Source: an uncultured Collinsella sp. (GTDB lineage Bacteria; Actinomycetota; Coriobacteriia; Coriobacteriales; Coriobacteriaceae). Taken from it: a DNA stretch of 64,000 nucleotides. Shown piece after piece: positions 22,112-55,299 of this stretch (the first letter of the stretch is position 1; each line of letters begins with the position of its first letter). A model generated the notes under the pieces. It was not told where the DNA came from, ran no database searches, and saw only the letters and a list, made by a program, of their open reading frames with translations. A program made the position numbers and the translations under genes. The stretch spans positions 132,969-196,968 of the forward strand of contig UQRZ01000002.1 of the NCBI GenBank assembly GCA_900543645.1. The letters run 5' to 3'.

Positions 22112-22122
22112 GTCTGCCTCCT

Positions 22123-28992: not shown

Positions 28993-29184
28993 TCCTTTCC
29001 TCCTTTATAGAACGTTATTTAGTCATGATGTTTGCGACAGCAAATAGTTCTAGATACGTGTCATTAGTATAAGGCGCACATCCTTCGCATCGCCAGGCGA
29101 ACTAAATCAAGGTCCTAACAGAAATGAAGGGTATGAGGCAAAGAAATCTATAGCAAACACGCAAAGAAACAAATATCGCGACTA

Positions 29185-29790: not shown

Positions 29791-31512
29791 TCAGCAATCA
29801 AGCAATGCATTCATAGAGCTCCACAAAGCATCCAATAGGTTATCAGCAGATTCTTTCGTCAAGCCCTTCGCAAAGAGATACACCTTGAGCTTAGGCTCAG
29901 TACCACTTGGACGAACAAGCACACGAGACCCGTTCGAGAGTCTCCACTCAAGCACGTTGCTCGGCGGTAGTATTTGAACGGGCTCGTCAGCTAGCGAATT
30001 CACCATTGGCATAGGCGCTCCCGCTTTGTAGTCAATCACATGGTCAACTGTCAAGTTGGCGATCTCGGTAGGAGCTCCCGCGCGAAATCTGTCCATAAGC
30101 GCAGTCATTCGCTCGGCACCGTCGACACCCTCGAAAGCTCTCGTTAACTGCTTGCCAGACCACCAGCCGTAGCGGTCATACAAGCGCGCCATGGCATCGA
30201 CCAGATCAAGCCCATCGGCCTTCAGGTCCGCGGCCATCTCGCACACGAGCATACACGCTTCGATGCCGTCTTTATCGCGCACGTGCGTTCCAGACAGATA
30301 CCCAAGGCTCTCTTCAAGGCCGAACAGGAAATCGCCCCGTCGACCATCCCGCTCAAGGAGCCCGATTTGCTCACCGGTGAATTTAAAACCCGTCAACGTG
30401 CGTCTGAGCTCTAAGCCATACCCATTTGCCACATCATCAGCCATGGGCGTTGAAACAATCGTGGTGACAGCAACTTTTCGGTCAAGCCCTCCCCTCGAAG
30501 CAGCCCGTCGAGCAAGCCAGTCCAGCAATAACACGCCAACCTGATTACCCGATAGCGTTATATATTCACCGCCATGGCGAACAACAACTCCCACTCGGTC
30601 AGCATCGGGATCCGTCGCCAAGGCAAGATCGCATCTCTCTCGGCTCGCGAGATCAATAACAGCCTCCATGGTCTGCGGAACCTCGGGGTTAGGCTTAGGA
30701 CACGTTGGGAAGTCACCGTTCGGCTCGGCCTGTTCCGCAACGACATGAAATGCTCCCATACCCATATTGCCAAGCACGCGCTGCACACACACAAGGCCGG
30801 CACCGTTGAGCGGAGTATACGCGACTGATAGGTCACTGCAATCAATGCCCTGCGAGCACGAGAGCGTAGAGTTGACATAACGGTCTAAGACATCTCCACT
30901 GGCCCACGCAGTCAAACCAGATTCAATTACCGCATCGAAAGGCTCCGCGCAAACATCGTCAAAAATATCAACCGAATCGATGGCAGCCTGAATTTGCCGG
31001 CACATCTCTGTTGTCGCCTGGCAGCCATCGGGTCCGTAGACCTTGAATCCGTTGTACTCAGCCGGATTATGCGAGGCGGTAACGACAATGCCCGCCGAGC
31101 AGCCGAGGTCTCGGACAGCGAACGAAAGAACTGGCGTGGGAGAGGGATGCCCGAATACCACGGAGCGAATTCCGTTTGCAGCGAGCACCTCAGCGGCACG
31201 ACGAACGAATTCCGGGCCGCCGTGGCGCGAATCCCGTGCAATAACAACCAGCGGTTCATCAACCTGCGAGTTGAGCCAATTGGCGAGACCCTGAGTAGCC
31301 TTACCCACCGTCCACACATTCAACCGGTTAGGGCCCATACCAATCTTAGCGCGCAAGCCACCCGTACCGAAATGGAGGTCACGAGCGAACGCGTCCTTTA
31401 GAAGCTGAGGATTAGACGCGAGGGCATTCAGAGCCTCCCGATCCTCATTACCGTCCATCGCTTCCAGCCAGCGATCAAATTCGTTTTCGATTGATACGTC
31501 GTTCACCGTCAT
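29791..31512 (-). CDS. Phospho-sugar mutase (phosphoglucomutase/phosphomannomutase family)
   Basis: 573 aa. Active-site TASHNPAEYNG and a metal-binding DPDADR loop. Confidence 0.85.
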   Translation of the reverse strand: MTVNDVSIENEFDRWLEAMDGNEDREALNALASNPQLLKDAFARDLHFGTGGLRAKIGMGPNRLNVWTVGKATQGLANWLNSQVDEPLVVIARDSRHGGPEFVRRAAEVLAANGIRSVVFGHPSPTPVLSFAVRDLGCSAGIVVTASHNPAEYNGFKVYGPDGCQATTEMCRQIQAAIDSVDIFDDVCAEPFDAVIESGLTAWASGDVLDRYVNSTLSCSQGIDCSDLSVAYTPLNGAGLVCVQRVLGNMGMGAFHVVAEQAEPNGDFPTCPKPNPEVPQTMEAVIDLASRERCDLALATDPDADRVGVVVRHGGEYITLSGNQVGVLLLDWLARRAASRGGLDRKVAVTTIVSTPMADDVANGYGLELRRTLTGFKFTGEQIGLLERDGRRGDFLFGLEESLGYLSGTHVRDKDGIEACMLVCEMAADLKADGLDLVDAMARLYDRYGWWSGKQLTRAFEGVDGAERMTALMDRFRAGAPTEIANLTVDHVIDYKAGAPMPMVNSLADEPVQILPPSNVLEWRLSNGSRVLVRPSGTEPKLKVYLFAKGLTKESADNLLDALWSSMNALLDC

Positions 31513-31562
31513 TCCCCCGTCGATGAGTCCATAACCCTAATTGCTTACAAGATGCGAAGAGC

Positions 31563-32549
31563 TTATACCTCTATGAAAATCTCACCGATTTCCTTGCGGT
31601 GACTATACGGAACCATCGTGCAATCCGGGTAGTAACCGGCACCCAAGACAACCGCGATGCGCTCGCTGTCCTTAAGGTTCAGCAGCTTGGAAATAGCCGC
31701 CTCCTCGGCACCGGTATTCCCCCACTGTAGGAAACACGACCCGATTCCCTTGAAGTGGAGAGCGTCGGCGAACCTCATGGCAACAAGGCCCGCATTTAAA
31801 TAGCCCTGATTACGCTCTCCGTAAAAGGTGAACGCGTTGAGATCGAACGTCACGACAAAGAGCGTGACGGCGTCCTTGTCAAACCCACCAAGGCCCATAA
31901 TCGCATCTTTGAGCTTGGACGCCTTTGCCTGATCGGTAACCTCGAGAATCTTAATCATCTGCCTGTTGCAGGCGGTAGGCGCATACCGAGCCGCTTCCAC
32001 GCAATCAAGAACATCGTCGCGCTTCAAGGGCACGCGCTTAAATTCACGAACAGAATGACGATCTTTGATAACGGTCGTGAAATCATCAATGCGATGCGCC
32101 GTCGCATCTTGAAGCGTGTATTCATGAGCGCCGACAGGGACCGGTTCGAAAGAGGCCGGAATCGTCTTCAGGAACTCGTTCACGGCTTTATAGCCGTCTT
32201 CCTGCTGCCAGCCATGCTTATCAAACAGGTCTTTCCAAACCAAAAGAATGCTGACGCCCATCTCATACGCCGTCGATACCTTCTGGTTCTCGGAATACGT
32301 CTTCAAATAATCAATCAGCTCTCGCACCTTCTTCTTGCCGAAGGGACGAAGGCCCTGAGAGCACATGCCCTTTTCCAAGCTGTGAACAATCAGAAGCACG
32401 TGATAATCAACACACGCGTGATCCGACATCGACTCCGCGTAGTTGGCGACGAATCGATTCGCATCGGTACGCATCTCCCTGCGAACCTTATGTGCCTTCA
32501 CAACCCTACGCAGGGCATCAATTGATTGCAGCTGCTCCTTAACGGACAT
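31563..32549 (-). CDS. Nitroreductase-family protein with about 150-aa N-terminal extension
   Basis: C-terminal half shows the nitroreductase pattern (RHSVREF...APTACNRQ). N-terminal domain unassigned. Sits inside the polysaccharide locus. Confidence 0.6.
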   Translation of the reverse strand: MSVKEQLQSIDALRRVVKAHKVRREMRTDANRFVANYAESMSDHACVDYHVLLIVHSLEKGMCSQGLRPFGKKKVRELIDYLKTYSENQKVSTAYEMGVSILLVWKDLFDKHGWQQEDGYKAVNEFLKTIPASFEPVPVGAHEYTLQDATAHRIDDFTTVIKDRHSVREFKRVPLKRDDVLDCVEAARYAPTACNRQMIKILEVTDQAKASKLKDAIMGLGGFDKDAVTLFVVTFDLNAFTFYGERNQGYLNAGLVAMRFADALHFKGIGSCFLQWGNTGAEEAAISKLLNLKDSERIAVVLGAGYYPDCTMVPYSHRKEIGEIFIEV

Positions 32550-34026
32550 TCTTTTTTCTCCTTACGATTGAAAGGCCAAATTCGAATAGCGTTTTGTCAA
32601 ATACATGCGCCCAAAGCACCGTCAAAGGAATGAACAGAATCGAACCGACAAAAAGCTGAAGGATCAACGTCAAAACCGAGATACCAAATACCCGTTGGAC
32701 TAGTAATGCCGGAAGTGCACTTGCAAGTCCAATCAGGTAGTACGGCACGCTGGCAAGCACTGCCTTTGAGTAATCGAATCGTGACCTCAAACGGAAATAT
32801 TGATAAAGCGGAACGAAGCTTTCAGCCACTAGGGACGCTATAGCCGCACCCAACGCAGCCAAACGAGGAATCAGCAATACATTGATAAGCACGTTCAAAA
32901 TACTGCTGATAAGAGTGGACTTCACATAGATGTCATCAATTTTGCTCGGAATGATGTACTGCATTCTGATGACATTGCCTAACCCCATGGCAATTAGAGC
33001 AAAACCGGACAGACGCAAGATGTTGGCGCTTTGGCTGAACTCAGCACCAAACAAGAGATCAATCAAACTGTCTGCAACTGCGAACAAGCAAAACGCCATC
33101 ATCGAGGTCATTATTGCCATGAGCCTTAGGGAGAGGGAGATATAGTGCTCGATTTTCGCCGAGTCCCCCTCAGCCACCAATTTCGACATCTTCGGCATCA
33201 TGACTGAACCGAAAGAAGCAATCAGGCCTGACAGGCAGTAGACGATTTTCTCTCCATTATCAAAAATACCTGTCTGAACCATGGTGCTCATCGCACCCAG
33301 CATCACTCTGTTCAACGACCGATATACATTCAAAGCAAGCGTTGGGATTAGCAACAACGAGCAGGGAAAGAGGTGCTCTTTGAAGTCCAACAGATACTGA
33401 GGAAGGATTCGTACACGCTTCCTCAGTCCTATCCAGTTCGTAAGATAGCCGCACACATATCCGCTCACCATGATCAATGCGTACAGCGGCGTGTCGCTCT
33501 TCGTTTTCACGAACAGGAAAATCCCGGCGACGCTCAGCAGCTTGACCGTAATATTCCTGATGGAAACACGCCGAAAGTCCTCGAGGCCAAACCAAAACCA
33601 ATCGATATCCGAAAAGGTGCCGACCACCCAAATCAGAAACACCAAGGCCATGATGAAATGTTCAGAGGAAAAGCAGAATGCGTAAATGGCATAGCAAATC
33701 GAAATCAAAACCGTCGAGCAGCACTGAAGTCCAAAAAGACGCGAGAACAGCTGATTCAACGCATCCTGATTGCCACGTACTTTGGCGATTTCCCGCGTTC
33801 CATAATTGGTAAGCCCGAGCTTGGCAATAAGAATCACGAATTGCGCGATGGAAAACGAATACGCGTATATTCCAGTACCCTCAGCGCCGATGATTCGAGC
33901 AAGATATGGTGCCGTCACAAGCGGCAATCCCATATTCAGAATCGAATACGCTGAGTTATAGATAAAGTTCTTTTTTGTGCCTACTGCCATAGAGCTAATC
34001 CTGAACACATTTCTCGAGATAGCCAA
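32539..34026 (-). CDS. wzx: Oligosaccharide flippase (Wzx, MOP superfamily)
   Basis: 495 aa with about 12-14 TM segments. AT-rich. Confidence 0.75.
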   Translation of the reverse strand: MAISRNVFRISSMAVGTKKNFIYNSAYSILNMGLPLVTAPYLARIIGAEGTGIYAYSFSIAQFVILIAKLGLTNYGTREIAKVRGNQDALNQLFSRLFGLQCCSTVLISICYAIYAFCFSSEHFIMALVFLIWVVGTFSDIDWFWFGLEDFRRVSIRNITVKLLSVAGIFLFVKTKSDTPLYALIMVSGYVCGYLTNWIGLRKRVRILPQYLLDFKEHLFPCSLLLIPTLALNVYRSLNRVMLGAMSTMVQTGIFDNGEKIVYCLSGLIASFGSVMMPKMSKLVAEGDSAKIEHYISLSLRLMAIMTSMMAFCLFAVADSLIDLLFGAEFSQSANILRLSGFALIAMGLGNVIRMQYIIPSKIDDIYVKSTLISSILNVLINVLLIPRLAALGAAIASLVAESFVPLYQYFRLRSRFDYSKAVLASVPYYLIGLASALPALLVQRVFGISVLTLILQLFVGSILFIPLTVLWAHVFDKTLFEFGLSIVRRKKNVR

Positions 34027-35041
34027 TAGAGCTGGCTCTCAACTCGCTGAATTTACTTTCAACCGAGGTGTAATCAATATCCTCGTTGAGAACGGCTTCG
34101 ATTCCCGCACCGACAATTCGCTGATCCAACGCAAGGTCATGCAGCAAGTTCTCAATCTTTTTCTTTTGATAGTCAAGAACGACAAACCGCTTATGGAAAA
34201 TCAACGAGAACACCGTACCGTGGAAGGTGTTGGTGACAACAGCTGATGCGCCATTAAAGCAGGAAAGAAAAGAAACGACGGTCGATTCATAATGCATATC
34301 AGCGAACGGCATACGGCGACCAAGTGACACTATTTTCAAGCTGTTATCGGCTGCATACTGTTTGATCTCGTCGACCACCGCAGCTGAAGGCGTATCGAAC
34401 AGATACAGTAGAAGATAGGTGCCCGCTTCTTCCATTGACCTACAGAATCCCTGATAAAAACTTCGATCCTTCAAGAGCGTGGGGTCGCACACCTTGCACG
34501 GTACCCGATCCGTCCGAGAAGTGATGTACTCGAGGGAACAGTCATCCCTAACGCTGATGTTCGCGTACTTCTTTATGGACTCACATGGATACTTCAGCGA
34601 ATCCAACGTTTCATAGGGCGAATTCGCGATTGAGGCTGCATAGGTAACGATCTTAGAACCATCCCATGGCAATCCCCAGAAGACATCCTGGGACTCCAAG
34701 AAATATGGCGACGTTACATCCCAAACGGTATCGCTGCCAATGGAAAGCAAATCAAAGCGTTCAGCTCCACTAGGATCGACGATGTGAAAATGTTCACGAA
34801 TGAACTGCCGGGAATCTCGATACTTTTTAATAACGGCTCCTGGACTTGACCTAGACACCAAAGCCTTTATAACGTCCTTGAATTCCTTCTTGTAAGAAAG
34901 CGCTGAGAGCTTATTGATCGTAGAGATGAATGACACATTGCATCCAAGCTTGCTGTACGCATCCTGCATCGCAAGCGCTTGAAGCACGCTTCCGCAATTG
35001 GTGCTATATATGACTGTAATGATTCCGACGCTATGCTTCAT
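33995..35041 (-). CDS. Polysaccharide pyruvyl transferase (CsaB/WcaK family), paralog 1
   Basis: 348 aa. Pyruvyl transferase pattern including NTFHGTVFSL. Confidence 0.7.
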   Translation of the reverse strand: MKHSVGIITVIYSTNCGSVLQALAMQDAYSKLGCNVSFISTINKLSALSYKKEFKDVIKALVSRSSPGAVIKKYRDSRQFIREHFHIVDPSGAERFDLLSIGSDTVWDVTSPYFLESQDVFWGLPWDGSKIVTYAASIANSPYETLDSLKYPCESIKKYANISVRDDCSLEYITSRTDRVPCKVCDPTLLKDRSFYQGFCRSMEEAGTYLLLYLFDTPSAAVVDEIKQYAADNSLKIVSLGRRMPFADMHYESTVVSFLSCFNGASAVVTNTFHGTVFSLIFHKRFVVLDYQKKKIENLLHDLALDQRIVGAGIEAVLNEDIDYTSVESKFSELRASSIGYLEKCVQD

Positions 35042-35057
35042 GAGCTCATCGGCCTCC

Positions 35058-36320
35058 TTATCGCTTGCTTAAATAGGGTTTTCGATTTTCCGCACCCTCA
35101 GGAATGTCAACGGTCTCTGAGCTATCCATAGCCTTCTCTTGAGAAACGTTCATGCACATAACCGCAAGATAGAAAGTTACCCAAACACTGAAATAATCAA
35201 GAATATGCGATGTAATGGCAACGAAGACGAGATACAGCATCATAAAGAAATGCCAATAGTTCTTCTTTGAGAATTCCACAATGCCGAAAGCGAAAGATGC
35301 GATTCCCAGAAATCCCGTTTCCAAGTAGATGCCGATAGTGTCGTTGTGAAGAATACCGTTCCACACAGTACCGAAATGCGATGAAGCGTACCCGGCTAGA
35401 TAGTAATTAATCGAACCATAGCCATTAAAGTCGCCAGACATACCCGATATGGCAAGATGATAGATGGTTGGACGGCCAGTCATCTCAGCGTTAAGGTCAA
35501 TTCCAAAGGAGCTATACAGCCATCCCATCACGTCATACCTGTAAAGCCACATCAGAACGAATGGGCTCAGAACTATCGCAACCATAACGAGCACACGATA
35601 GACGCGTTTCACATCACCCTTAGGCACGCGACTCGACAAGACAAATGCAACCGGGGCGAGAATGAAACTAAGGCGCTTCATCGAAAGCATACAGAAAAGA
35701 AAGCAAATAAAGGCCTTTCCTTTCTGCTTCATCGCCAGAAAGAGCATCTCCATGATTAGAAAGTCATGAGCAAGAGAGGATTCGGTCGCCGCCTCGGAAT
35801 CAAACCAGTTTATTGAGAGAATGCTACTTAAGGACAGCTTGTCAGCATTCATAAAAAGAAAATGACAGCAGAATCTGACCAAGAGGATGTTGAAGTAATA
35901 GTTCCAATCCTCTTCATCGACCGAATTAGCAAATAGCAGGGCATTGATAATCGGCAAACCAAGGCGTCCAAGCGCAGAGAACAGGAACCCTCGTAACCCA
36001 TCATGCATAATCTGAATTGGAATTGAGATGGCTCCAAAAACGACGATAAAGAAAAGTATGTAACCGGCATACTGAAATCCGCGTTTTTTAGCGGTGCCTC
36101 TATATACAAAGATAATGCCGTTGGCAGCACAAAAGAGCAGCAAAGTAGCCATATATAGGGCCTGTGACGCATACCCCAGCATGTAGGCAACATAAAGCAG
36201 GTTGTAGAGAATGAACAACAGGAACCTAAACCCCGACTTAGGAAGAAGCGGGGTGTTCAAAGCTCTCTGAATAATACTTGTCATCGTATTCATATTCGTA
36301 TTGCGAATCACGCTAGCCAA
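35058..36320 (-). CDS. wzy: O-antigen/polysaccharide polymerase (Wzy-like, O-antigen ligase family)
   Basis: 420 aa with about 10-12 TM helices and a large periplasmic loop. Confidence 0.65.
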   Translation of the reverse strand: MASVIRNTNMNTMTSIIQRALNTPLLPKSGFRFLLFILYNLLYVAYMLGYASQALYMATLLLFCAANGIIFVYRGTAKKRGFQYAGYILFFIVVFGAISIPIQIMHDGLRGFLFSALGRLGLPIINALLFANSVDEEDWNYYFNILLVRFCCHFLFMNADKLSLSSILSINWFDSEAATESSLAHDFLIMEMLFLAMKQKGKAFICFLFCMLSMKRLSFILAPVAFVLSSRVPKGDVKRVYRVLVMVAIVLSPFVLMWLYRYDVMGWLYSSFGIDLNAEMTGRPTIYHLAISGMSGDFNGYGSINYYLAGYASSHFGTVWNGILHNDTIGIYLETGFLGIASFAFGIVEFSKKNYWHFFMMLYLVFVAITSHILDYFSVWVTFYLAVMCMNVSQEKAMDSSETVDIPEGAENRKPYLSKR

Positions 36321-37434
36321 TGTGGCTCAGACGATCCCTCAGCAAAGCCTGCTTTTCGGCACACAGACTTGCAAGCTCACGCTGAATATCAGTGAAATCG
36401 ATATTCCGCACACGGGAAGACCATTCCTGTACATCAGAACAAATAAGATCGTTGGCACCGACAGCATTCAACAGAGTTGTAATCCTGGTACTAAAGTGAG
36501 AAGGAAGCGTTACGGCAACCGGCTTATTAAAGACGAGAGAAAACACGGTTCCATGGAAGGAGTCAGTGAACACACAGTTTGCGCCCTTAAAGAGCCCAAC
36601 CCATTCATGAACATCTGGAGCGATGATGTTTTGGCAACCGGGCTTAGTCTGATAGGGCATCGTAATAATCGACTTGATCTTCAAGCCGTGTTGCTTTGCA
36701 TATGCACGAGCACAATTCGCCGTGTCGCTATCTCCATGGAGCTGATACAAAAGAACATAGCTCTCTTCGTCAGTATCCTTAGCAAAGCGGCTCCACGTAT
36801 CCGGCGAAACAAGAAGCGTCGGATCGAGCATCAAATCGACGTCTGAATAGCCCATTTCCCGAAGCAATTTGATTCCCGACGTCTCTCTTACGGACAAGTA
36901 GGTATATTTCGAGAGCTGATTGTTAATGAAAGCTGAATCTTCCTCATTAAAGGATGATTTACCAAAACTCGAAGCAATCGAAATGCATGTAGAACCGCTA
37001 GGTGCAAATGCAAGGAAATACGAAGGATCGAACTTCTTTGTATAGTAGTTATTCCAAACCTGATCGCTACCCGAACAATAGAAATCAGCCTCCGGGAGAT
37101 CATCCTTCAATTCCTGGCACGAAAAGTATCTTTTGTTCGTAAGAGGCATTTCACTATCGATGAACCTGTCGAATGTAGAAATCCTCTTACGATTTCCCAG
37201 AGACTTGAGGAATGCTTTAGCAACCCGAATTGGAAAGGCCGAATTCATATTCGACACGTCGTTAAACTGATTTCTGAACGTGCCATAACCCAATATATTA
37301 TTGGGGCAATAGTCAATAATAATCGGCTCAAAACCAGCATCCTTAAGATACTGGACAGTCGCATACGCTTGCAGCGCGGCTCCGTAGTTATAAGCACGAT
37401 GATACGTCATGATAGCAACTGACTTTTTGGGCAT
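36313..37434 (-). CDS. Polysaccharide pyruvyl transferase, paralog 2
   Basis: Start at MPKKSVAIMTY. DSFHGTVFSL motif shared with paralog 1. Confidence 0.7.
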   Translation of the reverse strand: MPKKSVAIMTYHRAYNYGAALQAYATVQYLKDAGFEPIIIDYCPNNILGYGTFRNQFNDVSNMNSAFPIRVAKAFLKSLGNRKRISTFDRFIDSEMPLTNKRYFSCQELKDDLPEADFYCSGSDQVWNNYYTKKFDPSYFLAFAPSGSTCISIASSFGKSSFNEEDSAFINNQLSKYTYLSVRETSGIKLLREMGYSDVDLMLDPTLLVSPDTWSRFAKDTDEESYVLLYQLHGDSDTANCARAYAKQHGLKIKSIITMPYQTKPGCQNIIAPDVHEWVGLFKGANCVFTDSFHGTVFSLVFNKPVAVTLPSHFSTRITTLLNAVGANDLICSDVQEWSSRVRNIDFTDIQRELASLCAEKQALLRDRLSHIG

Positions 37435-37539
37435 TAGATTCCCTTCCCTCATTTCGTTTTTAAGCCGAATGATAACGACCTATGATTAGTGGATTGTTAA
37501 ACGCTGCGAATACCATCAATGCAGCCACAGCAATCGTTT

Positions 37540-38073
37540 TTATAGAATCAAGCCCATACCGCCGTCGAGCTCTTCGCGCATTTGCTGCATTCGATCGTAC
37601 GTAATCGATGCACGAAGAAACTCTGACCCATAGACCCCTCCCCCGGATTTGGTAACCTTTTTCGTCCGCTCTTCAAACTCCTCCACAGTCATCAAGACCT
37701 TAGCGGGAGACCCAGCCGCAACGACACCATTGGGCAGACTGCGCGTAACGACAGAATTGGCACCCACCACGCATCCATCACCGATACGAACGTTCGGCAT
37801 CACGATGCTACCGAAACCGATAAACACGTTGTCACCGACTGAAACTTTGCCGACCTTCGAGTATCCAACGAGCTTCTTTGTACTGCCATCGTGGGCAAGA
37901 AGGCAGACATTGGATGCAAAGGTGACGTTATTGCCGATTTCAATCAGCCATGGGAAGTTGGCATCGATGTTGCAACCCTTTTCCATCTGAAAATCGCTAC
38001 CGACAACGAGCCCATGTTTGATAAGTCGCTTTAGATAAAGGGCTTTAAAGGCGTTTCGAATGAAACCTAGCAT
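37540..38073 (-). CDS. Sugar O-acetyltransferase (hexapeptide-repeat, LbH family)
   Basis: 177 aa with left-handed beta-helix hexapeptide repeats (VGDNVFIGFGSIV...IGDGCVVGANSVV). Confidence 0.8.
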   Translation of the reverse strand: MLGFIRNAFKALYLKRLIKHGLVVGSDFQMEKGCNIDANFPWLIEIGNNVTFASNVCLLAHDGSTKKLVGYSKVGKVSVGDNVFIGFGSIVMPNVRIGDGCVVGANSVVTRSLPNGVVAAGSPAKVLMTVEEFEERTKKVTKSGGGVYGSEFLRASITYDRMQQMREELDGGMGLIL

Positions 38074-39134
38074 AGGCGATACAACTCCTTAACCTGCTTC
38101 ATATGAGCGTCGAGAGAATAGGTGGATTCGATAAGCTCGAAAGCGGCTTCGCTCATCTGCTTCCGATCGTCCGGATCGTCCAAAAGAGAAGTAAGGGCAT
38201 CGCCAAGCGCATCGATATCACCTGGCTCAATCAACATACCGTTAACCCCCGATTGAACCACTTCGGGAATAGCCGCGATGTTCGTGCTGATTGTGGGAAT
38301 ACCATGCGCCATCGCCTCAAGGATGCTCATGGGAAGCCCCTCATTGTATGACGGCAGGACGTTCAAGACGGCATCGTTCAAGATGCGCTCGCGCTGCTTC
38401 GAATCGACCCAGCCCAGGCACGCGATGCGATCAGAAAGCCCAAGTTCATCGATCTGGCTGCGAGCTGCATCGATATCACCGTCGCCGCAAAGGGCGACAT
38501 GGTATTTGCTGTCGATTCGAGAGGCTACGGTGCTAAACGCCTTGATCAGATCGAATGTCCCCTTGCGCTCACCAAGCCTGCCCATAAATACAATGGTATC
38601 TGCGTCAGGGCTGTAGAGATTCCTCCCGTACGTGGGAACAGCATTGTAGAGGACCTTGAAGCGAGCATTAGGAAAATGCTGTTCCATGGAGCGCTTGATC
38701 GAGTCAGAGAGCACAAGGTTCACATCGACATCGTTGCATACCTTCTCGACCTTTTCCTGCGCGTCTTGACTCAGGCCCGCAAAAAACGGTTCGAACTCCG
38801 CTGCATGATGGTGAAACACAACGGGGATACCGTTCTTCTTTGCCTCTTCCGCGATCATTGCCTTCCGCCAAAAACTGCCCCGTTCGGCAACATGAAGATG
38901 AACCAGGTCGACTTCGTGCTTCCTCAGCATATGACGAATTTTCGGGATTGTCAGCGCAAAGTGAGCTGCAACACGCACCTTATTACCCGGAACGTGGGTT
39001 GGAACAAAATCGATGTTGAATTCATCCCAGTCAGGGTATGACAGATAGTTTTTGACAACGGAGACCATGCCACCCTTCACATCTAGAGAGGAGCAGCACA
39101 TCAGCACCCGTATTTGAGAGGCAGTGGATTTCAT
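38067..39134 (-). CDS. Glycosyltransferase family 4 (GT-B)
   Basis: 355 aa. C-terminal EGLPMSILEAMAHGIPTI motif typical of GT4. Confidence 0.8.
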   Translation of the reverse strand: MKSTASQIRVLMCCSSLDVKGGMVSVVKNYLSYPDWDEFNIDFVPTHVPGNKVRVAAHFALTIPKIRHMLRKHEVDLVHLHVAERGSFWRKAMIAEEAKKNGIPVVFHHHAAEFEPFFAGLSQDAQEKVEKVCNDVDVNLVLSDSIKRSMEQHFPNARFKVLYNAVPTYGRNLYSPDADTIVFMGRLGERKGTFDLIKAFSTVASRIDSKYHVALCGDGDIDAARSQIDELGLSDRIACLGWVDSKQRERILNDAVLNVLPSYNEGLPMSILEAMAHGIPTISTNIAAIPEVVQSGVNGMLIEPGDIDALGDALTSLLDDPDDRKQMSEAAFELIESTYSLDAHMKQVKELYRLC

Positions 39135-39902
39135 CTAGCAGCCAGCCTTACGGTATTTGAAGATGAGTGGAACGATCTTAAGGTCATCAACCAGGTAGCG
39201 CTTTGCCAAACGCGCGGGATCCTGCGTGATTCGATAAAGCCACTCAAGCCCGCACCGCTGCATCCACTCGGGAGCTCGGGTCACGTTACCCGCCTCGAAA
39301 TCCAAGCTCGCTCCCAATCCGAGCATCAGCTTCGCATGAATACGATCCCGATAATGATGAATGAACTTCTCCTGCTTAGGGCAACCGAGTCCCACGATGA
39401 GAATGTCGGGTGCAGTCTCATTGATTTGGCTAATCGCCTCATCAACTTTTTTGGAATCGCGTTCGAAGCCATAATCGGGAGACATCGTGCCCACAACACG
39501 CAATCCCGGGAACTTAGCTGTTAAGTTGTTCGCCGCCTTCTGAGCAACACCAGGTGCCGCGCCGAAGAAGTACATCGTGAGACCACGCTTGGAGCACTCG
39601 GAGCACAGGGCAGGAAACAAATCGGATCCGGAAATCTTTTCTTTTATCGGGCTACCGTATCCCTTGGATATCCAGATGAGCGGCTTTCCATCCGTCAGGA
39701 TAAGGTCCGCATCACGGTATACGGCACGCAGCTCATCGTCCTTTTCGAGCTGCACGATATGATCGACGTTAGGCGTGACGACGTAATTACCCTGTCGCGA
39801 TCCAGAAGCCAATTCGCAGCAACGCTCGACCGCATCATCAAAGGTGATGTTGTCGACCTCGGTATTCATGAACTTCAAGCGACTCAATTCGACTCTCCCC
39901 AA
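39135..39902 (-). CDS. WecB/TagA/CpsF-family glycosyltransferase
   Basis: 255 aa. Conserved IVGLGCPKQE and LEWLYR motifs. Confidence 0.8.
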   Translation of the reverse strand: MGRVELSRLKFMNTEVDNITFDDAVERCCELASGSRQGNYVVTPNVDHIVQLEKDDELRAVYRDADLILTDGKPLIWISKGYGSPIKEKISGSDLFPALCSECSKRGLTMYFFGAAPGVAQKAANNLTAKFPGLRVVGTMSPDYGFERDSKKVDEAISQINETAPDILIVGLGCPKQEKFIHHYRDRIHAKLMLGLGASLDFEAGNVTRAPEWMQRCGLEWLYRITQDPARLAKRYLVDDLKIVPLIFKYRKAGC

Positions 39903-41254
39903 TGGTTGCCATACCGCACGTTATCGCTCTCGACCAAAATATCGCCCAGCTGTATTTCTATGGCGTTGATGTCGGTACGCGCTAGCAAAGCGTGACGAAC
40001 ACCGGCAGGAATCTCGACAACGCTTCCAGCGACCACGGGGCGCTCGCGGCCCGCGAGCGAAAACAGACCCTCACCTGATACGATGGTCCACACCTCTGAA
40101 CGGTTAACATGGCTTTGCTCACAAATCTGACTACCCGCCCGAACGAAAATCTCCTTCACAATCGTTCGCGAGCCATCGCGATAGGAACCTGAGTCGACAA
40201 CACGGTACGAGCCCCACGTCATGGTCTCTTGCATAGGGCGGTCCTCGGCCGCCTCTTTCACCAGCGATTTAATGTGCGCGGATTCTTCTTTTCCGGACAC
40301 CAGGACTCCGTCTGGCGTTGCGACCACCACGGAATCATGGAGCCCTGCGATCACCACGGGAATGCCTAGCTCATTGATGGCATGAACATCAGAGCAACTG
40401 TCTTCGTCAATGGAAACCCGTCCGCTTACAGATTCGCCCATCTCCTCGGTAAGCGTATTCCAAGTACCAAGGTCCTTCCAAGATCCAGCATACGGAATAA
40501 CGGCGACGGATTCCGCCGTCTCCACCACCTCGTAATCGAACGAGTTCTTTGGAAGCTCAGCATAACGCGACTGGAGGTCCTCATAGCTTGCATACGATCC
40601 ATACTGAGACAGGATGTCGAGAACATAACCAAGGCGGAATCCAAAGACGCCACAGTTCCAAAGAGCCCCGCGACTTATGAGCTCGCTCGCCTTGACCTCA
40701 TTGGGTTTCTCGGTAAAGCGCTCCACCATCCGCGGAGAGCCCTGCGATTCAGAGGGAACGATATAGCCGTACTTCTCGCTCGGGTAAACAGGTTCAACGC
40801 CCAGCAGCACGATGTCTGCTGTATTCGCCTCGATTGCCGATGCGACATCTGCAACCTTTTGGAAGTAGGTATCCTCGACATAGGAATCGATGGGCATCAC
40901 AATAACCGGGTCGGCAAGACCCGCACCCTGCTCTGCCAGTAGGTGCTCGCACGCAAGCATGATTGCAGGAGCGGTATCACGACGCTCAGGCTCCACGACC
41001 TCAGCATAGTGACCCTTAACTTGCATCTCGAGAGCACGAACCTGTGTCGCACAGGTTGCCACAGTTACATCCGCGTCGGGAACCACGCGTTCAATCTGGT
41101 CGAAGGTTCTCTGCACCATCGATACATGGTTGCCATTGGCATCGCGCAACACTTTAAGAAACTGTTTTGATCGCGCATCATTCGAAAGGGGCCAGAGCCG
41201 AGAACCTGAACCACCTGATAGCAAAATGATATGAATAGCCTGGCGCATCAGCAC
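39884..41254 (-). CDS. manC: Mannose-1-phosphate guanylyltransferase / mannose-6-phosphate isomerase (cupin C-terminus)
   Basis: 456 aa. N-terminal LSGGSGSRLWPLS nucleotidyltransferase motif and C-terminal cupin. Confidence 0.85.
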   Translation of the reverse strand: MLMRQAIHIILLSGGSGSRLWPLSNDARSKQFLKVLRDANGNHVSMVQRTFDQIERVVPDADVTVATCATQVRALEMQVKGHYAEVVEPERRDTAPAIMLACEHLLAEQGAGLADPVIVMPIDSYVEDTYFQKVADVASAIEANTADIVLLGVEPVYPSEKYGYIVPSESQGSPRMVERFTEKPNEVKASELISRGALWNCGVFGFRLGYVLDILSQYGSYASYEDLQSRYAELPKNSFDYEVVETAESVAVIPYAGSWKDLGTWNTLTEEMGESVSGRVSIDEDSCSDVHAINELGIPVVIAGLHDSVVVATPDGVLVSGKEESAHIKSLVKEAAEDRPMQETMTWGSYRVVDSGSYRDGSRTIVKEIFVRAGSQICEQSHVNRSEVWTIVSGEGLFSLAGRERPVVAGSVVEIPAGVRHALLARTDINAIEIQLGDILVESDNVRYGNHWGESN

Positions 41255-42009
41255 GCACCATCCCCGGTAAACACCTCAAGCACGGTGAGGCAGATGATTT
41301 TAAGATCCAACAGGACACCCCTCTTTGCTATATATTCCAGGTCGCGGCGAACCATGCCGTCGAACCCAGTATGGTTTCTCTCCGTCACCTGCCACCAGCC
41401 GGTGATTCCCGGCTTCACGGCCAGGCGCTGCAGGTCGTACTCGGTGTACTCGGCCACCTCGTTGGGCAGCGGCGGGCGCGGGCCGACAACGGACATCTGG
41501 CCCAGGAACACGTTGAGGAACTGCGGGAACTCGTCGATGGAGTGCTTGCGGATGAACTTGCCAATCTTCGTTACGCGCGGGTCATCCTTCATCTTGAACA
41601 TGGCGCCGGCGATCTCGTTCTGTCCCTTGAGCTCGGCGAGGCGCTCGTCGGCGTCTTTGTACATGCTGCGGAACTTCCACATGCGGAAGGTGGACAGGCT
41701 GCCGTCGCGGTGGCGCTGCCCCACGCGGATCTGGCTGTAAAACGGGTTGCCCTCGCTTTCCAAGCGGATGGCGGCGGCGAGTACCAGGCTCGGCACGGCG
41801 ATGACGGCCAGCACGCAGCCGCTGAACACGATGTCGAACGCGCGCTTGACGGTACGGTATGCCAGGCGCGAATTGTCCCAGTCCCTGACGGCCTGCATGG
41901 CCTTGTAGCGCATGCTCGCGTCGCCGCCGTTCATGGCCTGGGCAACGAGCGCGGCCCCCACCGGCGCGTTTTGCCCTGTCGCTTCTTTAGTGGTCAAGTT
42001 CAACTCCAC
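41248..42009 (-). CDS. Initiating sugar transferase (polyprenyl-phosphate glycosyl-1-phosphate transferase, short WbaP/CpsE-like form)
   Basis: 253 aa. KRAFDIV..., one TM segment, and conserved MSVVGPRPPLPNE. Confidence 0.85.
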   Translation of the reverse strand: MELNLTTKEATGQNAPVGAALVAQAMNGGDASMRYKAMQAVRDWDNSRLAYRTVKRAFDIVFSGCVLAVIAVPSLVLAAAIRLESEGNPFYSQIRVGQRHRDGSLSTFRMWKFRSMYKDADERLAELKGQNEIAGAMFKMKDDPRVTKIGKFIRKHSIDEFPQFLNVFLGQMSVVGPRPPLPNEVAEYTEYDLQRLAVKPGITGWWQVTERNHTGFDGMVRRDLEYIAKRGVLLDLKIICLTVLEVFTGDGAC

Positions 42010-42078
42010 GTCCCTGTCCCAAGGGGTCCCCCAATCGATGAATTCAAATTGCGAATAAATTGCCAGTACGACGTCCCC

Positions 42079-42669
42079 TTACGTCTTACTGGGCACGTCC
42101 AACGGAAGCAGCTCCCTAAAAGCGGAGTCGCCTTCGCCCACGTCTACCAGGCACCAGCGCTTATGACGGTCGATCTTGTGCACTCGGGCCTCTTGCCCCA
42201 CAAGTGGCCCTTGCTCTATGTGCAGCACGCCGTCCTCTATGCGCGCTACGCTGTTGCGCACCACGCCGTCGTCATCGAGCACGCTGCGGTACCAGTCCTG
42301 CGCATCGTCCGGCATGGGCGCATAGGCCCGCTCCCTGCTGCCAGCAATGCGGCAGCCAAAGCTCAACTGGGCCAAAGCCCTGTCGAGCAGGGCAGCATCG
42401 CGCGTGGCGACGAAGAAGTATTCCTTGTACATGGGTTTGGTTTGGAGCGACCAGGCGCCGTCCCGCTTAAACCAGAACTCCTTTTGCATCACAAAAGCGT
42501 CCTGCATCAGCTCGTGCGGGATAATACGACGGACCTTTTCGCAGGTCTCGCGCTCTTTTCCATTGGGGGTGTGGACCAGATACCAGCGGACGCGGCCGTG
42601 CTGGCTGCTGGCAGTAGCGCCACTAAAGGCACCGGGCAGCTGCTCTTGGCGCCGCATCGTCTGTTCCAT
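42079..42669 (-). CDS. NusG-paralog transcription antiterminator (UpxY/LoaP-like) heading the polysaccharide locus
   Basis: NGN-like VRWYLVHTPNGKE and KOW-like GPLVGQEARVHKID. Start set to ATG MEQTM. Confidence 0.65.
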   Translation of the reverse strand: MEQTMRRQEQLPGAFSGATASSQHGRVRWYLVHTPNGKERETCEKVRRIIPHELMQDAFVMQKEFWFKRDGAWSLQTKPMYKEYFFVATRDAALLDRALAQLSFGCRIAGSRERAYAPMPDDAQDWYRSVLDDDGVVRNSVARIEDGVLHIEQGPLVGQEARVHKIDRHKRWCLVDVGEGDSAFRELLPLDVPSKT

Positions 42670-42756
42670 CTCTCGCCCCCTTTTTTCTTGCTCCGCGACG
42701 CACGCGGATGCAGGGGCGTTAAGAACAGGCTTCTCGCTCGCAGCTAGGCGCAGTCG

Positions 42757-42887
42757 CAAAAGTACAGGTTTTTGTATCTTTCGACGTTGCTCATTATACG
42801 AGCAAACTGCTCGCGTTTTCCCAGATTGCACAAAATGCGCCGCGAATGGGTGCATCTCCATACCCCTCTACAAAAACCTGTACCTTT
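42757..42887. promoter_or_regulatory. Promoter segment bracketed by 19-bp inverted repeats (candidate invertible promoter)
   Basis: Left repeat AAAAGTACAGGTTTTTGTA at 42757-42775. Right repeat TACAAAAACCTGTACCTTT at 42869-42887 (18/19 complementary). The 93-bp interior carries a minus-strand TATAAT at 42793-42798 pointing into the antiterminator gene. Confidence 0.45.
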
Positions 42888-42894
42888 TTGCACA

Positions 42895-42970
42895 ACAAAA
42901 AAGCCGCTCTAACCAGCGGCTTTTCTTCTATAGACAACAAAAAGGCGACCGCCCGCGAGGACGATCGCCT
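42895..42970 (-). terminator. Two tandem intrinsic terminators downstream of thrS
   Basis: Minus-strand hairpins GGCGATCGTCCTCGCGGGCGGTCGCC plus TTTTT and AAGCCGCT-GGTTAG-AGCGGCTT plus TTTTTT. Confidence 0.75.
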
Positions 42971-42994
42971 TTATTAATTCTTGTATAGTTTGTG

Positions 42995-44758
42995 CTAGGC
43001 GCGAGTCTTGATCTCCTCGAGCACCTTGGCCACAAACTCGTCAACGCTCATCTGAACGGTCTCGTTGGAACGGTCGCGGACGGAGATATTGCCGGCCTCG
43101 ACCTCCTTCTCGCCCAGGATGAGCATGTAGGGCACGCGGTCGATGCTGCGGGCCTCGCGGATCTTGTAGCCGATCTTCTCGTCGCGGTCGTCGCAGACCA
43201 CGCGAATGCCGGCCTCCTCCAGCTTAGCGCACACCTCGTGAGCATAGTCGCGGCTCTTCTCAGAGACGGGAAGTGCCTTGACCTGCACGGGAGCCAACCA
43301 AGTGGGGAACTTGCCCGCAAAGTGCTCAATCAGAATACCGATGAAGCGCTCGATGGAGCCAAAGCACACGCGATGCAGCATGATGGGGCGCTTCTTGGTG
43401 CCGTCGGCGTCCACGTACTCCAGGTCAAAGTTGAGCGGCATCTGGAAGTCGAGCTGGACGGTGCCGCACTGCCAGGTACGGCCGAGCGAGTCCTCCAGGT
43501 GGAAGTCGATCTTGGGGCCGTAGAAGGCGCCGTCGCCCTCGTTGACCTCGTAGTCCATGCCCAGCTTCTCCAGAGCGGTGCGCAGGCCCTCCTCGGCGCG
43601 CGCCCAGTCCTCGTCCGAACCCATAGAGTCCTCGGGGCGGGTGGAAAGCTCAACGTGGTACTTAAAGCCAAACTTTTGGTACACGGAGTCGATGAGGTTG
43701 ACCACGCCCACGATCTCGTCGGTCAGCTGGTCGGGACGCACAAACAGGTGGGCGTCGTCCTGGTTAAAGCAGCGCACGCGGAACAGGCCGTGCAGGGCGC
43801 CGCGCAGCTCGTGGCGGTGGACCAGGCCAATCTCGCCGGCACGGATGGGCAGCTCGCGGTAGGAGTGCGGCTTGGAGGCGTACACCAGCACGCCGCCCGG
43901 GCAGTTCATGGGCTTAATGCAGTACTCTTCGTCGTCGATGACAGTGGAGTACATGTTGTCCTTGTAGTGGTCCCAGTGGCCCGAGGTCTTCCACAGCTGC
44001 TTGTTCATGATGAGCGGCGTGGAAATCTCAACGTAGCCGGCCTTGTGGTGGATCTCGCGCCAGTAGTCCAGCAGCGTGTTCTTAAGGATCATGCCGTTGG
44101 GCAGGAAGAACGGGAAGCCGGGGGCCTCGTCGCGCATCATAAAGAGGTCCATCTCGCGGCCGATCTTGCGGTGGTCGCGCTTCTTGGCCTCCTCCAGCAT
44201 GTGCATGTGCTCGTCGAGCTCTTCCTTGGTGGCAAAGGCGACGCCGTTGATGCGGGTGAGCATCTTGTTGTCCTTGTCGCCCTTCCAGTAGGCGCCCGAG
44301 ACGCCGGTGAGCTTAAAGGCCTTGAGGGCCTTGGTGTAGCAAATGTGGGGGCCAACGCACATGTCGATGTAGTCGCCCTGCTGGTAGAAGGTGATGCGGG
44401 CGTCGTCGTCCAGGTCGCCGATGTGCTCGACCTTGTACTTCTCGCCGCGCTCCTCCATAAGGGCGATGGCCTCGGCACGGGGCTTCTCGTACACGGAGAA
44501 CTTAAGGTTCTCCTTGACGATCTTTTTCATCTCGGCCTCGATCGCGGGGAAGTCGTCCTCGCTGATCTTGACGCCCTCGGGCAGGTCGACGTCGTAGTAG
44601 AAGCCGTTGTCGGTCGCGGGGCCGTAGGCAAAGTCGGCCTCGGGGTACAGGCGCTTGATGGCCTGCGCCATGATGTGCGCGGCGGAGTGGCGGATGACGT
44701 GCGTGACCTCGTCCTGCGGGAGCTCGGCCACCGAACCGTCATTGTAGAGTGCCTTCAT
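42995..44758 (-). CDS. thrS: Threonine--tRNA ligase
   Basis: 587 aa. TGS and second additional domain, class II motifs and anticodon-binding C-terminus. Confidence 0.92.
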   Translation of the reverse strand: MKALYNDGSVAELPQDEVTHVIRHSAAHIMAQAIKRLYPEADFAYGPATDNGFYYDVDLPEGVKISEDDFPAIEAEMKKIVKENLKFSVYEKPRAEAIALMEERGEKYKVEHIGDLDDDARITFYQQGDYIDMCVGPHICYTKALKAFKLTGVSGAYWKGDKDNKMLTRINGVAFATKEELDEHMHMLEEAKKRDHRKIGREMDLFMMRDEAPGFPFFLPNGMILKNTLLDYWREIHHKAGYVEISTPLIMNKQLWKTSGHWDHYKDNMYSTVIDDEEYCIKPMNCPGGVLVYASKPHSYRELPIRAGEIGLVHRHELRGALHGLFRVRCFNQDDAHLFVRPDQLTDEIVGVVNLIDSVYQKFGFKYHVELSTRPEDSMGSDEDWARAEEGLRTALEKLGMDYEVNEGDGAFYGPKIDFHLEDSLGRTWQCGTVQLDFQMPLNFDLEYVDADGTKKRPIMLHRVCFGSIERFIGILIEHFAGKFPTWLAPVQVKALPVSEKSRDYAHEVCAKLEEAGIRVVCDDRDEKIGYKIREARSIDRVPYMLILGEKEVEAGNISVRDRSNETVQMSVDEFVAKVLEEIKTRA

Positions 44759-45515: not shown

Positions 45516-45732
45516 ATCTCAATCTGTAACAGGTGGAAGCGGAATCCGGGTCTAGGTGTTACAGATCGAGACACAGGGGTCCCTCCGCGACTTCAATCTC
45601 GATCTGTAACATCTTAGGCCCCAAAACCCCTCTTACTGTTACAGATCGAGACATTCAAAATCCACCGGAAGGTTTGTCTTGATCTGTAACATCTAGAACC
45701 CAAATCCTCGTCTAACTGTTACAGGTCGAGAC
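45516..45732. repeat. Three tandem 80-bp units, each a 16-bp inverted repeat (GTCTCGATCTGTAACA / TGTTACAGATCGAGAC) around a 25-nt variable loop
   Basis: Units start at 45516, 45596 and 45676, an exact 80-bp period. Arms are conserved and loops and linkers are variable. Confidence 0.7.
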
Positions 45733-50341: not shown

Positions 50342-50405
50342 CCAATGTGCCAAAGGGACAGCCCCGTTGACACATTCCGCTAACGTCGCGCCACGAAACC
50401 GGGCC

Positions 50406-50533
50406 ATCTACTACGTTTAACCCGCATGGGTCGACCATGCGGGAATTTTTTGAAAATCGACAAGTTATCTACCTGCGGTTTTAATTTCACAATGCTCCGC
50501 GTGGTCGAGGGTAGTCGGTAAAACGTAGTAGAT
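50406..50533. repeat. MITE-like element copy 3 (17-bp terminal inverted repeats ATCTACTACGTTTAACC / GGTAAAACGTAGTAGAT)
   Basis: Shares the TACTACG terminal inverted repeat core and the internal ATCTACCTGCGGTTTT motif with copies 1 and 2. Confidence 0.5.
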
Positions 50534-50692
50534 AAGCCCATTTCGTGGCGAGCAAGTCAACTCGAGGCGCAGGGTAGTCAAAATTGCCCCGTCCCAAATT
50601 GACTACTTTTAAGTTGCGGTGATATACGGACTGTTTGAGGCTCCTGGCTTGTAAAACAGTCCGCATTTCACCGCAACCGCTGAGGGGATGGG

Positions 50693-52036: not shown

Positions 52037-52316
52037 AACCCAAAGTCCCCCATAACAGAAAAAGAGGCCCACCAAAAAGAATGAGCCCCTCGCGTTGACA
52101 ATATCAGCCTCTATCCGCTTGCAGCGAGATCAAGGCCACAACCAAGTGGCCCTAACACGCCAGATGCAAACAACCACGTAACCGCACTAGGAGCGGCCCG
52201 ACGCTTTGCTCGCCGCAAGTTCCGCACGCAAAGGACAGCACTTAATGTGCTGTCCGTCTTGCGCAGGACTGTCCGCAGCGGAGAGCAAAGCGTCGGGACG
52301 CGCCCCCCAGTACCGC

Positions 52317-55027: not shown

Positions 55028-55146
55028 CCCGTCGGGGAGGAATGTAGGCCCGATTTTCGCTCGGTCAGGTCCTGGGCTCGCTCGAAGACCACATTAAGTG
55101 GTCTTCGGCTCGTGCGGAATCTACGAAAATCGGGCCTACATTCCTC
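55028..55146 (-). promoter_or_regulatory. Structured valS 5' leader: 24-bp inverted repeat enclosing a 7-bp-stem hairpin
   Basis: GGAGGAATGTAGGCCCGATTTTCG at 55028-55051 pairs with CGAAAATCGGGCCTACATTCCTCC at 55123-55146. Inner hairpin GAAGACC-ACATTAAGT-GGTCTTC. Lies 14-130 nt upstream of the valS ATG. Confidence 0.5.
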
Positions 55147-55299
55147 CCCTTAGGTATCGATTACTTCAGTCTGAATGACTTCGCTGAGGCTTAAACAAAC
55201 ACACAGAATAACACAGGTAGTTGGGTGTTTTGCGTATATATAAAATAGCCTACGACCGCGGATGGTCGGAGGCTATCGACAAAGACGTTTTGACAGGTT

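Follow-up and report, generated by a model that had tools for sequence, protein, structure and literature searches.

A 92-nt segment at positions 42777-42868 of the Collinsella DNA analysed here, set between two short inverted repeats, very probably works as an invertible promoter, or inverton, by which a LoaP-dependent operon for exopolysaccharide is turned ON and OFF. The whole stretch of DNA, called the window below, comprises 64,000 nucleotides of contig UQRZ01000002.1. It comes from a member of the Collinsella aerofaciens complex, in the class Coriobacteriia (phylum Actinomycetota), and apart from the polysaccharide locus it has a G+C content of about 0.62-0.65. In the human gut, C. aerofaciens and related bacteria rank with the most abundant Actinomycetota, and they have repeatedly been associated with disease; to our knowledge, their surface biology is almost unstudied. 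An initial annotation of the window proposed that a promoter-bearing segment flanked by inverted-repeat arms, upstream of a gene for a NusG paralog (here called loaP), is a DNA-inversion switch. Comparison with other genomes upholds that proposal: the segment is found in both orientations in cultured isolates, metagenome-assembled genomes (MAGs) and metagenome contigs, without correlation with phylogeny.

Geometry of the inverted-repeat arms

The proximal arm, AAAAGTACAGGTTTTTGTA (42758-42776), lies beside the leader and loaP, and the distal arm, TACAAAAACCTGTACCTTT (42869-42887), lies on the side of thrS. Each arm is 19 nt long in the inverted-repeat search of the window, and the two are complementary at 18 of 19 positions (95%), as originally annotated; the inner segment measures 92 nt rather than the 93 bp first given. 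On the gene strand the proximal arm reads TACAAAAACCTGTAC-TTTT, and the symmetry reaches outward to GCAAAA(A)G on both sides if a 1-nt bulge is allowed. The centres of the arms are 111 bp apart, and the arms together with the inner segment span 130 bp. The proximal arm is a probable site of recombinase binding and crossover. By in-window statistics the arms are unremarkable: inverted repeats of at least 15 nt whose arms lie within 400 bp occur as 13 pairs in the window, and the 15-mer arm core, with up to three mismatches, has two matches against 0.42 expected, a count reached in 7 of 100 shuffles. The evidence for a switch thus has to come from other genomes.

Both orientations in Collinsella genomes

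The orientation of the window, in which the -10 hexamer points toward loaP, is called ON, and the reverse complement between the same arms is called OFF. The two can be told apart by junction strings in which GCAAAAAGGTACAGGTTTTTGTA is followed by GAGG or by TCTT. With the NusG paralog as query, a protein search retrieved homologs whose over-called N-termini run into the upstream region. In one class these N-termini (MHPFAAHFVQSGKTRAVCSYNE...RKIQKPVLLRLRL) are the minus-strand reading of the inner segment of the window, and in a second class (MYLSTLLIIRANCSRFPRLHKMRREWVHLHTPLQKPVLLRLRL) they are the plus-strand reading of the same segment; both classes join the identical downstream sequence QKPVLLRLRL. 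Proteins P0003, P0004, P0007, P0032 and others are cases in which gene callers extended loaP through the leader into the switch. These two artefactual variants of the loaP N-terminus thus report orientation and offer a proxy for mining protein databases.

At the nucleotide level, the flanks and both arms of two loci (L001 and L002) match the window, and the 92 nt between the arms are its exact reverse complement. The exact 196-aa loaP protein is recorded in 45 blocks of a public collection. Its look-up gave ten metagenome loci, all linked to thrS, with one inverted (L003), eight in the orientation of the window, and L011, also in the window orientation, with a 1-nt insertion in the proximal arm. 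A wider survey, limited to one genome per species of the Genome Taxonomy Database (GTDB), returned 80 Collinsella loci; among the 59 scored with exact arms, 40 are ON and 19 OFF. When up to two arm mismatches are allowed and all loci are pooled, the counts become 61 ON and 24 OFF, with 71 distinct inner sequences. Cultured isolates are found in both states (ON: L014, L026, L038, L040, L050, L070 and L077; OFF: L022 and L033). The arms are nearly invariant across these loci and the inner sequence is divergent. Upstream of the switch, thrS is present in essentially all loci with a long enough flank, at about 98-100% amino-acid identity with a single exception at 92%.

The closest comparison is between L003, which is OFF, and L007 and L008, which are ON: none of 1,780 flank positions differs, and neither does any position of the inner segment. 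On a neighbour-joining tree of 74 locus flanks, orientation needs at least 20 changes, compared with a mean of 19 (range 15-22) for shuffled labels. Because orientation turns over as fast as random labels would, and because identical flanks occur in both states, flips must be frequent relative to point mutation. Orientation is uncorrelated with phylogeny, and flipping is recurrent, with many independent events. Assemblers cannot create such an inversion, since the 19-nt arms are shorter than k-mers and reads. Contigs begin exactly at an arm in L020 and L072 and within the segment in L015 and L027, as is expected if the sampled populations are of mixed orientation. In practice, an inverton of this kind both fragments assemblies and yields over-called N-termini of loaP.

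Several loci depart from the common arrangement. C. aerofaciens ATCC 35085 (L090, positions 1-330) and L064 (2600-2900) retain about 20 nt of the inner segment, with its GAGG end (OFF), beside the proximal arm; further upstream is unrelated GC-rich sequence, with neither thrS nor a distal arm. The upstream open reading frames (ORFs) of L064 include a PyrK-like oxidoreductase and no transposase. These two loci suggest a rearrangement with its breakpoint inside the switch, which probably leaves the operon locked off. In L001, an IS200-type Y1 transposase gene (658-1116) is inserted between thrS and the terminator plus switch, and the switch itself is intact and OFF. L028 is a Collinsella locus (thrS 99.5% identical) deposited in an Alloprevotella sp. 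bin, most likely through a binning error.

Homologous switches in more distant Coriobacteriia

The layout recurs at loci that encode more distant LoaP homologs (45-60% identity), where the switch again precedes a polysaccharide operon led by a Bac_transf gene. In L093, 153 nt separate arms of sequence CCAAAAGGTACACGTTTTG, and a TATAAT points toward loaP. The -10 likewise faces loaP in L098 (arm AAAAGTACACATT, 103 nt between arms) and in L104 (arm AAAAAGTACACGTTT, 101 nt), and it faces away in L096 (arms CAAAATGTACACCTTT and AAAGGTGTACGTTTTG, 113 nt) and in L097 (arm TCAAAAGGTACACCTTTTCA, 107 nt). The arms share a core composed of an A-tract, (G)GTACA, two or three bases, and a T-tract. In all five loci the -10 is TATAAT, TAGAAT or TACAAT and faces outward through one arm. 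L098 also has the leader element and, directly upstream of its distal arm, a terminator hairpin, both of which are described below for Collinsella. Judged from these sequence comparisons, the architecture is older than Collinsella.

Probable position of the crossover

The two arms differ at one outer position, reading AAAAGTACA in the proximal and AAAGGTACA in the distal arm, and they are unchanged between ON and OFF loci. This outer mismatch stays with its flank in all 81 of 81 loci, in either orientation, which would place the crossover inside the shared 15-mer GTACAGGTTTTTGTA. A second variant, TTTCTG, in the inner third of the arm, stays beside the GAGG end of the segment in both orientations. 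Since the outer mismatch keeps to the flank and the inner variant to the segment, the exchange should fall inside GTACAGGTTT. The arm would then be a dimer-binding site with the dyad C-A5-GGTACAGG-T5-G, cut at its centre, with the 2-bp crossover predicted within GTACAG. Its half-site, ACAAAAACC, resembles the half-site of hix, TCAAAAACC (as in hixC). Dyad symmetry of an A-tract and a T-tract is typical of the sites of small serine invertases (hix, gix).

The proposed promoter and conserved blocks within the segment

The minus-strand TATAAT reported upstream of the NusG paralog is present at 42798-42793 (ATTATA on the plus strand, 42793-42798) and points at the loaP start codon, ATG at 42669; the window orientation is ON, as had been claimed. 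Over 71 unique inner segments the hexamer is near-invariant, with TAAAAT, TATGAT and TATAGT as its only variants, all of the form TANNNT. It is the most conserved element of the inner segment and faces outward through one arm. Transcription would start about 7 nt past the -10, at about 42785-42788.

After normalisation for orientation, the inner segments contain four conserved blocks: GAGGSGTATGGAGATG, ATTTTGyGyAATCTGGGmAAACG, CTCGTATAAT and GTCGAAAGA. Sequence varies freely between the third-last block and the -10, and just after the -10. The minus-strand block AATCTGGGAAAACG (42814-42827), which lies 15-28 nt upstream of the -10 and is kept in part in L098 as CCATCTGGTAGAACG, could serve as a divergent -35, bind an activator or have an accessory role. 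The minus-strand block GAGGSGTATGGAGATG occupies the distal end of the segment (42853-42868); a part of it, GGGTATGGAGA, is also found in L098, and it may be an accessory site for recombination. Given the direction of the -10, a promoter here would drive the operon in one orientation of the segment.

The LoaP-like gene, its leader and the operon

The first gene of the operon, loaP (42079-42669, minus strand), encodes a specialised NusG paralog of 196 aa, identified with Pfam and NCBIfam models. It matches the Pfam NusG model with an E value of 0.003. The NCBIfam LoaP model NF033641 scores higher (E 4e-24, 85.6 bits over 147 of 166 model positions, below its cutoff of 125) than the UpxY model NF033644 (E 4e-4, 20.3 bits, below its cutoff of 100). 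The UpxY-type assignment of the initial annotation does not hold, and from its sequence the protein is best described as LoaP-like rather than UpxY-like. In keeping with the LoaP family, the gene heads a long polysaccharide operon. This 12-gene operon, delimited with Pfam and the gene tables of L003-L008, continues on the minus strand with the genes after loaP at 29791-42009. The second gene encodes a priming sugar transferase (Bac_transf by Pfam, not UpxZ-like). It is followed in order by ManC, a WecG-type glycosyltransferase, a GT4 glycosyltransferase, a hexapeptide acyltransferase, a pyruvyl transferase, Wzy, a second pyruvyl transferase, a Wzx-type flippase, a nitroreductase and a phosphoglucomutase.

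Strains share the switch, loaP and the priming transferase, and their later glycosyltransferase genes differ (L001 and L002 compared with 29791-41254 of the window). After Bac_transf, L001 carries a GT2 gene and L002 carries GT4 and GT1 genes. Because these downstream genes differ, one switch governs different polysaccharide structures in different strains.

Between the switch and loaP lies a GC-rich leader with no -10-like hexamer. A 33-nt leader element, CUUUUGCGACUGCGCCUAGCUGCGAGCGAGAAG (42730-42762, minus strand), is predicted to form an imperfect hairpin and overlaps the outer end of the proximal arm. The element is identical in 13 diverse Collinsella leaders and near-identical in L098, whose LoaP is 60% identical, and it is a candidate site for recruitment of the LoaP-like factor. 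Structure prediction on the leader alignment gave a second minus-strand hairpin, UCCGCG-UGCGU-CGCGGA (42692-42708), in which two base pairs show compensatory changes from CG to UA in 6 of 14 sequences. In the predicted leader fold, CGCCCC (about 42712-42717) pairs with GGGGCG of the loaP ribosome-binding site, a pairing that could make translation of loaP dependent on structure.

The thrS side of the switch

The conserved upstream neighbour of the switch is thrS, which encodes threonine-tRNA ligase (42995-44758, minus strand; TIGR00418, E 1.5e-210). Two terminators are placed between thrS and the switch. One, at 42941-42972 on the minus strand, is the intrinsic terminator of thrS called by a terminator scan. 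The other, read from the sequence after the inverted-repeat search, is the hairpin AAAAGCCGCT-N6-AGCGGCTTTT (42899-42924), which is bordered by an A-run and, at its other end, a T-run, and it is a putative bidirectional intrinsic terminator. L001, L002 and L011 keep this hairpin immediately next to the distal arm, on its upstream side, and L098 has a different hairpin at the matching position.

A candidate recombinase

The window had been annotated as lacking a recombinase gene, and five Pfam runs over about 50 of its ORFs found no recombinase domain. A tblastn search with the resolvases of two relatives against the window and 92 Collinsella loci returned nothing, and the gene tables of relatives list no recombinase within 10 kb on either side of the switch. 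In three of the distant loci (L096, L098 and L104), the gene immediately upstream of the switch encodes a protein of 198-209 aa with a Resolvase domain (PF00239). The L098 enzyme has homologs in clusters of 5,597 and 2,328 members, among whose named members are the recombinase family protein of Collinsella aerofaciens, WP_368138072.1, and a protein named DNA invertase Pin-like. Over its full length, WP_368138072.1 (201 aa, in the cluster of 5,597) shares 67-68% identity with the L098 enzyme. Its gene in C. aerofaciens lies among conserved housekeeping genes in the order ftsE, ftsX, rnr, resolvase gene, vanZ, ... smpB, which is the same in four independent assemblies, and at the matching rnr...smpB site of another species there is a copy with 72% identity.

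The three switch-adjacent enzymes and the rnr-linked enzymes are 61-75% identical to one another with no split by location, and all have the catalytic motif YARVS(S/T). The nearest solved structures are Bin3/Sin, gamma-delta resolvase and Gin, with matches that span residues 4-192. The features of the candidate are those of a small serine invertase: a Resolvase domain, an N-terminal serine, a length of about 200 aa and a C-terminal DNA-binding domain. Against the Mpi model NF009949 the alignment is full length at 38-53 bits, with 38.6 bits for the candidate, far below the cutoff of 272. Because orthologs adjoin homologous switches in relatives, the rnr-linked serine recombinase is proposed to flip the thrS-linked switch in trans, and a search for a recombinase elsewhere in the genome, as suggested with the initial annotation, thus has a strong candidate by synteny in this 201-aa protein. 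We lean, by a modest degree, toward a single vertically inherited, rnr-linked invertase acting in trans on the 92-bp inverton, with the module of invertase, inverton and LoaP being ancestral across the Coriobacteriia and the invertase gene either remaining beside the switch or having been relocated.

No further copies of the arms, with up to three mismatches, are present in the window, and the fetched loci have one pair each. Close homologs with a long enough upstream flank all map to the single thrS-linked site. A metagenome scan that skipped the canonical flanks found 22 partnerless matches in unrelated contigs (21 of them low in G+C) and three variants of the canonical locus. The suggestion that the same repeat pair might flank other promoters thus found no support beyond chance in the window, the fetched loci or the metagenome scan.

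Proposed mechanism and alternative explanations

In the proposed mechanism, the ON transcript would start about 7 nt past the -10 and cross the proximal arm and the invariant leader hairpin. The leader would recruit the LoaP-like factor, the first product of the operon, which would make RNA polymerase processive across about 13 kb. In the OFF state the promoter would fire toward thrS and be halted by the terminator at 42899-42924; this terminator and that of thrS would also keep read-through from thrS out of the operon. The flipping enzyme would be the 201-aa serine recombinase encoded between rnr and vanZ, acting in trans.

Several observations weigh against parts of this account. A sigma-70 consensus scan of 42000-43300 called no promoter, and the -35 region is conserved and not TTGACA-like; this dissimilarity is the reason that no call was made despite a perfect -10. 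The terminator scan did not call the hairpin at 42899-42924, whose bidirectional role is a reading of its sequence. For mixed orientations inside one clonal culture, the suggestion comes from the contig breaks. The assignment of the recombinase draws on synteny in relatives, and no arm-like site or inverted repeat is present near the Collinsella resolvase gene.

The last of these points would also fit inversion by another recombinase encoded elsewhere, either a tyrosine recombinase or a different serine recombinase, with the rnr-linked resolvase serving some other role, and L093 and L097 have homologous switches with no recombinase in the examined flank. We consider this unlikely, since three independent distant loci have the resolvase ortholog directly beside a homologous switch, the Collinsella resolvase is as close to these switch-adjacent copies as they are to each other, and the arm cores are conserved across loci with a dyad of the kind that small serine invertases use. 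Alternatively, the segment might invert and carry no promoter for the operon, acting instead as an orientation-dependent terminator, a roadblock or a regulator-binding module, with the promoter in the leader or further upstream. The missing consensus call and the inner blocks at 42814-42827 and 42853-42868, which have no assigned function, are in line with such a module. It is improbable given that TATAAT is the most conserved inner element and its outward-facing counterpart recurs in every distant homologous switch, that the GC-rich leader offers no -10-like hexamer, and that two terminators block entry from thrS.

Two further explanations dispense with a dedicated switch. Short inverted repeats can promote rare RecA-independent inversions, and the two orientations might have arisen from non-programmed events, such as template switching in replication or assembly artefacts; the enzyme proposed for the switch is assigned by synteny. 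An origin of this kind is very improbable: the arms are below k-mer and read length and isolates occur in both states, the arms are near-invariant beside a divergent inner sequence while orientation turns over as fast as random labels, and the arm core, the size class and the position upstream of loaP are kept across genera, with a recombinase adjacent in three loci. The repeat might instead be fixed, whether as a pair of operators (a fixed pair of protein-binding sites was an alternative named with the initial annotation), as a stem that closes an RNA structure or as a miniature transposable element, and the proximal arm would indeed be transcribed and overlaps the predicted leader hairpin. 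As a sole explanation this is scarcely credible and is refuted by the inverted loci, which give direct sight of both orientations; binding of regulators by the arms may occur as well. The same loci led to rejection of the RNA-stem reading. A transposon or miniature inverted-repeat transposable element was rejected on the grounds of one fixed site, always the same, and no extra copies. Rfam searches, at gathering thresholds on the window and permissively on 42500-43050, returned tRNAs and sub-threshold chance matches near the terminators, with no match to the repeat above threshold.

Comparison with known systems

The capsule system of Bacteroides fragilis combines inverted-repeat-flanked promoters, the invertase Mpi, and UpxY and UpxZ proteins (PMC11685472, citing Coyne et al. 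2003). The Collinsella locus resembles it in having a promoter on a short inverted-repeat-flanked segment directly upstream of a polysaccharide operon led by a specialised NusG paralog, and, by the assignment proposed above, in relying on a small serine recombinase whose gene is remote from the switch; each organism is a commensal of the human gut. The invertible segments of B. fragilis are about 170-230 bp long, compared with 92 nt here. B. fragilis belongs to the Bacteroidota and has 7-8 such loci, whereas Collinsella is a member of the Actinomycetota with a LoaP-like paralog, no UpxZ-like second gene, and one switch locus per genome seen, at the thrS-linked site of the fetched loci. The candidate enzyme, moreover, matches the Mpi model weakly (38-53 bits, cutoff 272). 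Of the known systems, the capsule system of B. fragilis is the closest functional analogue of the locus, which is not itself a member of it.

The view that an invertible promoter of this type would be notable in a high-GC Gram-positive has to be narrowed, because Bifidobacterium breve UCC2003 provides a precedent. As reviewed for its eps2 locus, exopolysaccharide (EPS) expression there depends on which way round a promoter lies between inverted repeats, and the review names no invertase (PMC4155821). B. breve is likewise a gut commensal of the Actinomycetota. Its promoter is flanked by two operons that diverge from it and determines which of two EPS types is made, whereas the Collinsella switch turns a single operon ON or OFF and its promoter faces a terminator when OFF; the passage of the review on this locus makes no mention of a NusG paralog. 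The shortness of the segment, which had been considered unusual, is in line with what the accessible part of the DeepInverton catalogue reports for Actinobacteria, whose invertons are the shortest and the highest in G+C (PMC11602134).

LoaP has been proposed to recognise a hairpin in nascent RNA (PMC11685472). As in the LoaP operons of Bacillus amyloliquefaciens (dfn and mln) and in LoaP-linked polysaccharide clusters, a gene for a LoaP-type paralog heads a long biosynthetic operon, with a conserved hairpin (predicted in Collinsella) in the leader downstream of the promoter. For LoaP systems the literature search found no report of an invertible promoter, and the Collinsella protein falls under the NCBIfam LoaP cutoff. 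The candidate recombinase, at about 200 aa with a YARVS motif and a C-terminal DNA-binding region, is similar to Hin, Gin, Cin and Pin. Hin and Gin invert segments of about 1-3 kb and need an enhancer bound by Fis. In contrast, the Collinsella sites are 111 bp apart, a spacing that argues for a geometry different from that of Hin and Gin, and their A- and T-tracts enclose 8 nt instead of 6.

Inversion of the segment is genuine, and the segment is very probably an invertible promoter; its notable features are a very short length, a LoaP-type partner, conservation across the class and a candidate trans-acting invertase in the core genome. A search of the accessible literature found no description of an inverton in Collinsella or the Coriobacteriia, or of a LoaP operon under inversion control. 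Among the inverton catalogues (PhaseFinder and DeepInverton), the accessible main text of DeepInverton mentions neither Collinsella nor the Coriobacteriia (PMC11602134); the tables of these surveys may already list the site, which would weigh against its novelty. If the proposed mechanism is correct, no LoaP-family operon before this one would have been known to be controlled by DNA inversion, as far as the literature search shows, and the system would be an independent, Actinomycetota-wide counterpart of the Mpi/UpxY logic of Bacteroides. The logic of Bacteroides capsules, with an invertible promoter, a processivity factor and a remote serine invertase, would then be present in a second phylum with a different NusG lineage. 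With a phase-variable exopolysaccharide, isolates or metagenome bins belonging to one strain could have different surface phenotypes through orientation alone, with a bearing on immune recognition, phage susceptibility and colonisation experiments. The 130-bp substrate, with sites 111 bp apart, is also a compact test system and raises the question of how a serine recombinase synapses such close sites.

Other features of the window

Past the operon, positions 17000-29800 form a low-GC island (0.41-0.57) that contains several tRNA genes, Fic and DUF3825 proteins, a KAP-type NTPase, and a 454-aa protein with a weakly restriction-endonuclease-like C-terminus. Fragments are also present, among them a C-terminal piece of a UDP-glucose dehydrogenase and an HTH_28 piece. 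The island looks like a variable defence or mobile region. Within it, at the far, low-GC end of the polysaccharide region, 95 nt between tRNA genes are enclosed by a 30-nt inverted repeat (17626-17655 and 17751-17780, 90% complementary), with a switch-like geometry and arms unrelated to those of the loaP switch.

Other inverted repeats are found on the far side of thrS. Imperfect repeats at 50389-50550 (54 nt, 74%) and 52190-52304 (27 nt, 89%) are intergenic around a folC-like gene, and the few relatives with sequence across them are colinear, showing no inversion. Just upstream of valS, the valS-clpX intergenic region contains a perfect inverted repeat of 26 nt with 64 nt between its arms (55034-55059 and 55124-55149), where no Rfam family was called. 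At 45554-45651, three copies of TCTCGATCTGTAACA in alternating orientation and with 25-nt spacing lie upstream of a plus-strand operon for an FAD-oxidoreductase (glycerol-3-phosphate dehydrogenase-like), and they look like an array of regulator operators.

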